From the NCBI RefSeq assembly GCF_036365525.1, contig NC_090419.1, positions 11,718,001 through 11,782,000 of the forward strand: a DNA stretch of 64,000 nucleotides, written 5' to 3'. Positions within the stretch are counted from its first letter, which is position 1. Every line of letters starts with the position of its first letter. The translations under genes and the position numbers were made by a program. Below, piece by piece: positions 12,610 to 61,768 of this stretch. Below the pieces are notes generated by a model. It was not told where the DNA came from, did not search any database, and saw nothing but the letters and a program-made list of their open reading frames with translations. This DNA comes from Heterodontus francisci. Taxonomy: Eukaryota.

Positions 12610-12812
12610 GGTCCCGCCTTTTACACAAAACAGCCAATCAGCCCTGAGGACCAACGTTCCATTTATGTTGATGTTTCTCCAAGCAACCGGAGCCCTTTGT
12701 TCTCACAGACCAATAAGAAGTCGAGTTGGCTTCGGAGAATGAGGTATAAATAGGGCGAGCAGCAACATAGGCAACACATTGACAGGAGCTGCGAGAATAG
12801 AAAGACATTATG
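12610..12812 (+). promoter_or_regulatory. Type-A promoter: GC box, two CCAAT boxes, TATA
   Basis: CCCGCC 12613-12618, CCAAT 12634-12638 and 12710-12714, TATAAA 12745-12750, 65 nt before the ATG. Equivalent TATAAA at 26589, 40155, 52901. Confidence 0.75.
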
Positions 12813-15800
12813 GTAAGTGCGCCTGGAAGAATGCTGAAAGGGATGCGAAGCACAGAACCGGAGCGGTCAACAGGTAGAGGGGGATCTGCAGGGAGAGTGC
12901 AGGATCCGCATGGATAGAGTAGGGAATCCACAGGCAGAGAGCATGGTGCTCGAGCGAGTCGGAGATCCACAGGGGGGGACGCAATCCCCAGGGAGCGAGG
13001 GGGATCCACAGTGCAAGAGAGGAATTCCACAGGGACAGACGGAATCCACAAGAGGCTGATGCACATGGACAGGGGGAGAGAGAAAGAGGGAGGGACTCCG
13101 TATTGGGACATACACAGAGTGATGGATCCATAGGGACAGAGTGTGATCGAGTTGGAGAGATGATTGTTTTTCACAAGGAGCAAGAAGATTATCCGGGAGC
13201 GGGGAAGAGAAAAGGGAGTGTGCAACGGTGAAGAAATACGGAGAGTTCCTTCAAGATATTGAGCAGTAGATGGACAGGAATTGGGGATGAGCACGGAGAG
13301 GGAAGTGTTCAGGCGGAGGTGAGGACAGAGGGAGGATATGTCTACAGATAGCAAGAATCTGCCAGGAACTGGAGATCCACAGAGGGACGGGAGATCTGCA
13401 GGGTGTTTACAGGAGTCACGGTAGTTCGACAGAGGGAGCTGCAGCTGGTGATTCAGGATTCCAGTGATCCACAAGGAATGGACTGGGGGATGGGGGGGCA
13501 CAGAGATCGGGAATTTCCGAGACCTGGGGAATCTCCAGGGACAGAGTGTCCGATGGATGGGAGGATCAATGCGGAATGGAGGGGATCCACGGGTTACTGC
13601 AGCGGGATGTGTTGCTGCCCACACACCCTTCTTCTTCCAGGACCAGAACGACTGTCGAAAACATTGCCTCTTCATCTGTAAGTAATCACCTGTTCTTCCC
13701 CCTTTAGCGTGAGTGTATTTCAATCCATATTGGCCAGGCCGGTGTGCAGATCGGTAACGCTTGCTGGGAGCTGTATTGCCTGGAGCATGGGATCCAGCCG
13801 GATGGACAGACGCCCAGTGACCAGAGCATCGGGGGTGGCGATGACTCCTTCAACACATTCTTCAGTGAGACGGGGGCGGGTAAACACGTTCCCCGAGCCG
13901 TGTTTATAGATCTGGAGCCCACTGTGGTTGGTAAGAGGAGTGATTGTTGATGGGTTGCTCAGTCAGTGCTCTCAATACACTCATTGAAACATGGCCTGAA
14001 TGTTGTGTGCTCATGAGTTTAACTTCTCCTTCCCTGTCCCCAGATGAGGTCCGTACCGGCACCTACCGACAGCTCTTTCACCCCGAGCAGCTCATCACCG
14101 GCAAGGAGGATGCGGCTAATAACTATGCACGGGGTCACTGCTCCATCGGCAAAGAGATTGTGGATCTGGTCTTGGATCGCATACGGAAGCTGGTAGGTTC
14201 TGTTAGTTTGGTGTGCCGAGATTTCCCGCCTCGCATTCCCAACGATAATAATTCGGGATGAATCAGTTATCACTTCATTTCGGGGGATGATCGTACCCAC
14301 AGAATCACAAAAATTACACCGATTTCACAAGAATTATAGAGTGGTTATAAATGGAGGACTTAATTCTCAATCTGGAAACAAATTAGCGTATTTTAGAATT
14401 CTTTCTCAAGCAATTTTGATTTCCTGTGCAACCAGCAATTCGCAGTCCCTGGCAGGCCCTGCACCCCCTTCCCAACTCCAGGCCTCGAACATAAATCCTC
14501 TCCGAGCTGCTTCCCCCTTGTTCCCCACTGCCTCCTCCACAAGGTCCATTACTGCATCCCCCAGGCTCCCACTGCTCCATCTCACCAGCTCCCATTGCGC
14601 CCTCTCAGCAGGAGGCTCCTGCTCCATTTTAATGGGTTGTGCGTGTGTTATTTACCCACAGGCTGACCAGTGTACAGGACTGCAGGGTTTCCTCATCTTC
14701 CACAGTTTCGGGGGTGGGACCGGCTCAGGTTTTACTTCCCTCCTGATGGAGAGACTCTCCGTCGACTACGGCAAGAAATCCAAACTGGAGTTTTCCGTTT
14801 ACCCCGCGCCGCAGATTTCCACCGCGGTGGTCGAGCCGTACAACGCCGTACTCGTCACCCACTGCACCCTCGAGCACTCTGACTGCGCCTTCATGGTGGA
14901 CAATGAGGCCATTTACGACATATGTCGGCGTAACCTTGACATTGAGCGACCGACCTACACCAACCTCAACCGTCTCATTGGACAGGTAGTGTCATCCATC
15001 ACGGCGTCGCTGCGGTTCGACGGTGCCCTCAACGTGGACCTGACTGAGTTCCAAACCAACCTGGTCCCCTATCCCCGAATTCACTTCCCACTGGTAACCT
15101 TCGCGCCCACTATTTCGGCCGAGAAGGCTTACCACGAGCAACTGTCGGTGGCGCAGATCACCAACGCATGCTTTGAGCCAGCCAACCAGATGGTGAAGTG
15201 CGACCCCCGCCAGGGCAAGTACATGGCGTGCTGCATGCTGTACCGAGGAGACGTGGTGCCCAAGGATGTCAACGCCTCCATCGCCACCATCAAGAGCAAG
15301 CGCTCGATCCAGTTTGTTGATTGGTGCCCGACTGGGTTCAAGGTAAGTGTGGCTTTTGTGTCCAATACATGGGGCCCTGGGGAAACATGGATTGTGGGAA
15401 TCGCATCTCATAATGAGCAACACTCTTCAGTCCCAGTCAAAAGTTGTTTCTCCATTCAGGAAGAGTAATGGAACAGACCTTCCCCATTCCTGGCCCAAAG
15501 ACCAGCTCCCTCTGAGGGTTGAGGTGGAATGCTCTCAGATTCACTCCTTGACTGAAGCCTGAATGTCCCAGGGTAAGTCCTGCCTTGAAACCAGGAAAGG
15601 CCTTCCTGACAACTCAAGGCCTCTTTGGAGAAGCTGTAATTAAGAAGGAATTCGCTCCTGAATGCAGCCTCATTTCCATTGGAAACTGAAGGTTTAAACC
15701 TGGGAGAGGTGCCCAGTGAATAACCAGAGCTGGGTGTACAGAGAAAGACACAAACTCGCTCAGAAACGTAACTTTCTGAAAAGTAAGCGGCGGTCAACAG

Positions 15801-61500: not shown

Positions 61501-61768
61501 GCCAGGGGGCGACCTGGCAAAGGTGCAGCGAGCTCTCTGTATGCTGAGCAACACCACCGCCATTGCTTTCGCTTGGACCCGCCTCAACCTCAAATTCGAC
61601 AAGATGTACGCCAAGCGGGCCTTTGTGCACTGGTACGTCGGGGAGGGCCTGGAGGAAGGGGAGTTCCAGGACGCACGGGAGGACCTGGCCTCACTCGAGA
61701 AGGATTACGAAGAGGTGGGCGTCGATTCATCCTATCTGGACAGAAGGGCAGAGGAGGAGGAAGAATAA
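58571..61768 (+). CDS. TUBA: Alpha-tubulin isotype B, copy B4 (451 aa; N101K)
   Basis: join(58571..58573,58977..59199,59313..59461,60264..60944,61469..61768); [11 protein letters not shown] (AAG 59387-59389). Confidence 0.92.

Follow-up and report, generated by a model that had tools for sequence, protein, structure and literature searches.

In Heterodontus francisci an array was found in which two divergent alpha-tubulin genes, A and B, alternate, and whose members belong to a clade confined so far, among the matches listed, to elasmobranchs. The best overall explanation, to which we assign a probability of roughly 0.5, is that this elasmobranch clade was amplified, comprises two isotypes and would be used in male germ cells. 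The architecture and history of the array are very probably as described below.

The window, i.e. the whole stretch of 64,000 nucleotides that was analysed (G000:C49:11718001-11782000), is filled almost completely by repeats of a 12.5-13.9-kb unit, the two longest of which carry insertions. The initial annotation had described a two-gene unit of ~12.7 kb and eight intact genes in strict A-B alternation, and both statements agree with the measured period and with the five-exon frames, all of which are open. The gene order A1-B1-A2-B2-A3-B3-A4-B4 runs from the ATG at 12810 to the stop codon at 61768 (Table 1). Each gene is composed of five exons of 3/223/149/681/297 or 300 nt separated by GT-AG introns, of which the fourth is located after codon 352, as had been noticed earlier; the window genes carry TATA, CCAAT and AATAAA signals and contain no internal stop codons (n = 8). 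The products of 450 (A) and 451 (B) amino acids are full-length alpha-tubulins with the MREC start and the GGGTGSG motif, and both are 89 % identical to the canonical TUBA1-type alpha-tubulin of the same genome. Eighteen residues are fixed between the four A and four B copies of the window, pairwise differences amount to 20-24 and the B tail has one additional Glu, in accordance with the roughly 20 differences proposed previously, every listed example of which was present. Most of these replacements are conservative (I/V, S/T, M/L), and their clustering in residues 270-302 is not significant (p 0.06 after scan correction).

Table 1. Tubulin genes, gene remnants and other elements located in the window
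Feature	Position	Strand	Characteristics	Exons or parts
Intact A, inverted arm	215..520	-	promoter plus exon 1 (ATG only)	exons 2-5 left of window, G000:C49:11714856-11717305
5'-truncated B	4061..6204	-	promoter and exons 1-3 absent	end of intron 3, exon 4 4887-5567, exon 5 4061-4360
Centre of the inverted array	6205..6900	.	~700-base non-tubulin spacer	37-bp tandem repeat at 6636-6896
5'-truncated B	6901..8882	+	A-type G232, S287, Q290 (codons 232-290); R264G	exon 4 7376-8056, exon 5 8583-8882
A1	12810..16158	+	intact, 450 aa, Q40	exons 12810-12812, 13708-13930, 14044-14192, 14662-15342, 15862-16158
Extra TATA-less exon 1	17940..18060	+	upstream of B promoter	exon 1 and start of intron 1
B1	18397..21596	+	intact, 451 aa, K40	exons 18397-18399, 18803-19025, 19139-19287, 20093-20773, 21297-21596
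5'-truncated LINE	24258..25461	-	reverse-transcriptase-like ORF of 385 aa; single unit only	
A2	26654..30806	+	intact, 450 aa, K40; B-type L128 and S187; intron 3 longer by 775 nt through insertion	
B2	33052..36252	+	intact, 451 aa	
A3	40220..43585	+	intact, 450 aa, Q40	
B3	45821..49023	+	intact, 451 aa	
A4	52966..56326	+	intact, 450 aa, Q40	
B4	58571..61768	+	intact, 451 aa, N101K	

Inspection of 414 kb around the window, containing no N gaps, revealed a lopsided, inverted array of ~114 kb (about 11.700-11.814 Mb) with 9 intact A, 7 intact B and 2 truncated B genes. From the centre outward, the left arm consists of a truncated B, A, B and A, and the right arm of a truncated B followed by six A-B units and one last A; the two promoterless B copies point away from each other across the central spacer. 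Over 5.5 kb the outer ends of the arms share 98.4 % identity, and the inverted similarity runs on into the flanks. The expectation of more copies in the inverted arm was correct for the locus, since an intact A, B and A are found immediately to the left of the window, but inside the window this arm is represented only by an A exon 1 and a truncated B. Equivalents of the extra TATA-less exon 1 occur near 32654, 45426 and 58167, in the last of which the ATG reads TTG, and these copies upstream of each B are likely to be relics. The LINE fragment of Table 1 is taken by us to be of CR1 type.

Nine further intact, A-like genes (C) form a cluster at G000:C49:11946500-12050000 (L023-L033), ~140 kb from the A/B array and directly upstream of an ALAS gene. 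All nine encode V204F and one encodes G321R, and degenerate exon 2-3 fragments are present alongside. Together with a single D gene located on another contig, 26 full-length frames (9 A, 7 B, 9 C and 1 D) were recognized and none has a stop codon or frameshift. The same genome contains 14 other alpha-tubulin loci; alpha-tubulin ranks with the most strongly conserved proteins of vertebrates and is usually present in few copies.

That the array was created by false duplication or merging of haplotypes during assembly is highly improbable. Redundancy does exist here, as contig C1300 (27,294 bases) duplicates part of the array; being 100 % identical to window positions 33019-60312, it gives no independent support and was dropped as such. 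An artefact is nevertheless contradicted by the array units, which differ from each other by 1-5 % over their whole length and possess private insertions, by the gap-free 414 kb and by the many copies likewise present in skates.

The A, B, C and D proteins were grouped with proteins from 15 shark, ray and skate species in one clade (SH-aLRT 100; 100/99 in the second tree). No member from chimaeras or bony vertebrates was found among the best 120 matches of three protein searches, with 15 of the 36 proteins in the largest cluster being listed. A skate relative compared with alpha-tubulins of the PDB gave an E value of about 1e-290. Some C and D genes are already present in the automatic annotation (P0143, P0200, P0204), and the generic names given there conceal clade members. 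Seventeen signature residues preceding the tail set the clade apart from eight other tubulins.

Skates expanded the same clade, also with two types. In thorny skate K40 and S40 types are encoded on one 52.9-Mb record, and 11 of them with nearby accession numbers comprise 6 K40, 4 S40 and 1 fused model, in which non-K40 exons are joined to a K40 gene; another fusion of this kind occurs on a different record. The accession numbers of the skate S40/Q290 proteins (P0192, P0194, P0199, P0203) and K40/E290 proteins (P0197, P0198, P0202) are interleaved. A parallel alternating array in skates is a tentative lead based on these accession numbers. The S40 type has Gln290, like shark A. Residues of A and of B occur mixed in each of the skate types, and A groups with B (95/89); the skate proteins are thus not orthologous to A and B, and an ancient A/B split common to sharks and skates was not supported.

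The intron after codon 352 was found, among 10 other alpha-tubulins modelled (L045, L046 and L047 are outside this comparison), in only one gene, located on contig C25. This five-exon gene has an Mss4 gene beside it and falls together with reptile TUBA8 in the protein tree (96/87). The five-exon TUBA3/TUBA8 layout to which the initial annotation had likened the array genes was thus met again in a TUBA8-like gene of the same genome; human TUBA8 and TUBA3 presumably carry this intron as well. The clade is 87 % identical to the C25 gene and joined with it in the DNA tree (83/63) but not in the protein tree, and AU tests of TUBA8/TUBA3 kinship, run without a mixture model, neither showed nor rejected it (p 0.31, 0.235 and 0.208). 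The neighbours of the array on C49 are MiT/TFE (TFE3-like), Brix (IMP4-like), CCDC115, ALAS and a NAP-domain gene, a set which we take to be the human Xp11-type block; a GPCR was found on C49 as well. USP18/PEX26 or MZT2/SMPD4, which we assume to be the neighbours of TUBA8 and TUBA3, were not seen among 288 ORFs flanking the genes on C49, C25 and C463 (150 of 161 candidates in one set; short exons are missed). Paralogues of MiT/TFE are present on C25, C19, C49 and C18, and ALAS genes on C49 and C19. The MiT/TFE paralogues and five-exon genes on both C25 and C49 are consistent with an old genome-duplication pair, and descent of the clade from a five-exon ancestor via an early vertebrate genome duplication is plausible. 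While the intron after codon 352 is common to the clade and TUBA8/TUBA3, the clade differs from them in forming its own group (100/99), in its 26 intact copies, in the lack of an aromatic residue at the tail end and in its neighbours.

The D gene (G000:C463:234718-250830; L054, L039, L055) is fast-evolving and belongs to a subclade conserved in sharks and sawfish. In D-type proteins (P0143-P0153, P0212, P0215-P0217) the Lys40 loop is basic and the M-loop region has been rewritten; D, with a net charge of -7 compared with -24 for canonical alpha-tubulin, is possibly the stranger protein. Another divergent alpha-tubulin, a four-exon gene whose Lys40 loop is altered and whose short tail is skate-like (L042, G000:C7:12422800-12427800), is a weak sister to the clade (90/83). 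Location of the array on the shark X, which according to the accessible part of PMC12318234 bears HoxC, was considered and rejected: no homeobox match was obtained on C49 among the 150 of 419 candidates scored, and the Hox-bearing X-like contig appears to be C51, on which four canonical alpha-tubulins are present in addition to a small Hox-like cluster.

The C-terminal Tyr is absent from the whole clade: all 25 A, B and C copies end in EEEE and D ends in EGV, compared with Tyr in nine and Phe in one of the 10 other modelled alpha-tubulins. Gln occupies position 40 in 7 of the 9 A copies (3 of 4 in the window), and Lys does so in the remaining 2 A, all 7 B and all 9 C. Eight of the 17 signature residues fall in positions 384-437 (p 0.0005), which we take to be the helix 11-12 region on the motor-facing surface; the charge of this segment is -5 in the clade versus -8 in other tubulins, and that of the tail -4/-5 versus -8. 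Microtubules built from the clade are predicted to be less acidic on their outer surface and in the tail and to lack an encoded tyrosine, and most A copies would be devoid of an acetylatable Lys40. TUBA4A-type alpha-tubulin also encodes no C-terminal tyrosine, and the tail of Naegleria flagellar alpha-tubulin likewise ends without Tyr (cf. PMC2115128). The shark protein departs from these types in its tail, where two Arg are present and the negative charge is halved, in a changed helix 11-12 and in a gene of five exons. As far as the available part of PMC11216746 goes, K40Q serves as an acetyl mimic and has little effect in C. elegans neurons, and tyrosine loss raises microtubule stability. 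Gln40, the Tyr-less tail and the less acidic helix 11-12 make these proteins natural variants for questions concerning the tubulin code. A bolder reading, tentative and on the whole rather doubtful, is that elasmobranchs wrote part of the tubulin code into genes, through the missing tyrosine, a tail of half the charge and a remodelled surface for motor binding, and that sharks and skates independently built Lys40/non-Lys40 two-isotype arrays (with Gln40 and Ser40, respectively, and Gln290 in both) whose products would co-assemble into a specialised microtubule, e.g. of the spermatid or sperm.

The A and B reading frames are under purifying selection. The numbers of silent/replacement variable codons within classes are 23/6 for A, 15/2 for B and 78/31 for C, the replacement/silent ratios per site are 0.08, 0.04 and 0.12, respectively, and dN/dS between A and B is 0.20. 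Intron 2 is 96.5 % identical between A and B, compared with 78, 75 and 82 % for introns 1, 3 and 4, and the intron ends that adjoin exons show hardly any differences, which indicates an old duplication and continuing conversion between A and B. Selection probably keeps the two isotypes distinct against this conversion. Among 55 A/B-diagnostic sites, the letter of the other class was present in an intact copy at 13 of 28 silent sites, compared with 4 of 27 replacement sites (p 0.019; counted per codon 13/28 versus 4/22, p 0.07), with the reservation that copies are not independent and that letters held in common may stem from ancestry or recurrence instead of conversion. Silent fixed A/B differences are located nearer to replacement codons than expected by chance (7.9 versus 11.6 codons, p 0.016). 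The promoterless B copy with exon 4 at 7376, which carries A residues at positions 232, 287 and 290 found in none of the seven intact B genes, serves as an internal control. The lower leak of replacements, the placement of the silent differences and the A residues of this copy constitute moderate evidence for selection on both isotypes, and in this vertebrate locus two isotypes seem to be kept separate in spite of gene conversion. The earlier proposal of two specialised isotypes is supported as regards amplification, purifying selection and, probably, maintained distinctness; specialisation for a cell type is its predicted part.

The A-B pair would have arisen by an old tandem duplication and then been amplified as a unit, likely by unequal crossing-over and one inversion. 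In-register unequal crossover of the two-gene unit would preserve the alternation, and gene conversion would homogenise the copies, the exons and intron 2 staying alike and most replacements resisting it. Since amplification of a two-gene unit gives strict alternation automatically, no selection for a 1:1 ratio is needed. A 1:1 dosage cassette, as suggested in the initial annotation, was not supported: the ratio is 9:7, nine A-like C genes are added and no matching beta-tubulin array was found, the 105 candidates, all of which were scored, yielding about 10 presumed beta loci spread over 6 contigs. The lack of such an array makes a simple heterodimer dosage doubtful too. Tubulin arrays of Trypanosoma alternate alpha and beta genes, and trypanosomatid arrays in general are likewise amplified head-to-tail and homogenised by conversion, with alternation resulting from a two-gene unit. 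The shark array differs in being of a vertebrate, in having a promoter and introns in each gene, in its alpha/alpha unit and in the inverted arm. A tandem array with concerted evolution is described for Leishmania beta-tubulin in the accessible portion of PMC1533823. In an Antarctic fish, according to the part of PMC3464624 available, alpha-tubulin was multiplied by duplication and at least nine isotypes are expressed, the context being brain tubulins and cold adaptation; both are vertebrate duplications into several isotypes, and the shark case is distinguished by a lineage-specific divergent clade and an alternating two-isotype unit.

Neutral birth-and-death of one gene type in a repeat-rich microchromosome region, with A and B interchangeable, is an unlikely explanation. 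Satellites and LINEs do fill the region, truncated copies and exon fragments are present, the alternation is automatic and conversion alone can keep surplus copies intact. It agrees poorly, however, with the absence of stops and frameshifts from all 26 full-length copies, with replacement sites leaking less than silent ones and with the two-type expansion of the same clade in skates.

Expression in one specialised cell type is predicted, and male germ cells are the favoured candidate, with about even odds, on indirect grounds: the array is ampliconic and inverted, its D paralogue evolves fast (dN/dS of 1.17 versus A in codons 269-345) and most A/B promoters share an X-box-like motif, all of which we take to be traits linked to testis. 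The motif at 12673..12687 (+), 140 nt before the end of the A1 ATG, recurs at this position in 15 of the 16 A/B promoters, one of the seven B promoters being without it; it occurs in 2 of the 8 C promoters found and is absent from the other 6, the RFX consensus having been applied after the alignment was seen. Service of the same array in the marginal band of erythrocytes or thrombocytes seems unlikely. It is suggested by an ALAS gene that has the A/B array on one side and the C cluster on the other, and which on the basis of presequence and synteny we assume to be ALAS2; comparison with the PDB did not separate ALAS1 from ALAS2 for the two ALAS genes, and an Rfam scan of 50 kb around ALAS gave no match at all, an IRE included. 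In favour of a marginal band are also the four tubulin-region polypeptides of dogfish marginal bands (accessible text of PMC2112168) and the action of TUBA4A and TUBA8 in the platelet marginal band (available part of PMC11285727). The spacers upstream of A and B (window 10580-12560, 16270-17900 and equivalents) contain 17-24 WGATAR sites compared with 5-7 in shuffles, but these belong to a strand-biased, degenerate TGAT/GATAG simple repeat (57-64 TGAT per spacer) and the proximal promoters of B and C are mostly devoid of WGATAR; the spacers as erythroid enhancers were set aside, the sites being probably a simple-repeat by-product. The missing beta-tubulin array speaks against a marginal-band role and equally against the idea that the array stocks the very large elasmobranch egg with oocyte or maternal tubulin, which is rather improbable despite the high copy number combined with ordinary TATA/CCAAT promoters. 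A divergent ovary-specific alpha-tubulin exists in Xenopus. One is reported for Drosophila as well, in the accessible part of PMC3464624.

No description of the clade or array was found in the literature searched, largely outside subscription journals; the word 'tubulin' was absent from the text of the shark and skate genome papers found, and the supplements of PMC11406177, PMC12318234 and PMC11806052 gave no hits. On this basis the alternating two-isotype alpha-tubulin amplicon of this shark appears to be new; tandem tubulin arrays and concerted evolution were already known, and the array mechanics themselves are ordinary. For the germ-cell prediction, a 31-tissue catshark expression dataset already exists (PMC11979771).

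Several other elements were recorded around the array. A 25-kb satellite with a 58-bp unit in 434 copies is located to its right (G000:C49:11833241-11858364; L012-L014), followed by three tandem LINE copies of ~7 kb with long frames of 694 and 1252 aa (G000:C49:11865538-11884022; L015-L017). A 27-bp minisatellite is present on both flanks of the array in inverted orientation. To the right of the C cluster, a single-exon frame of 311 aa encodes a rhodopsin-family GPCR (G000:C49:12068187-12069119; L035:6187-7119).
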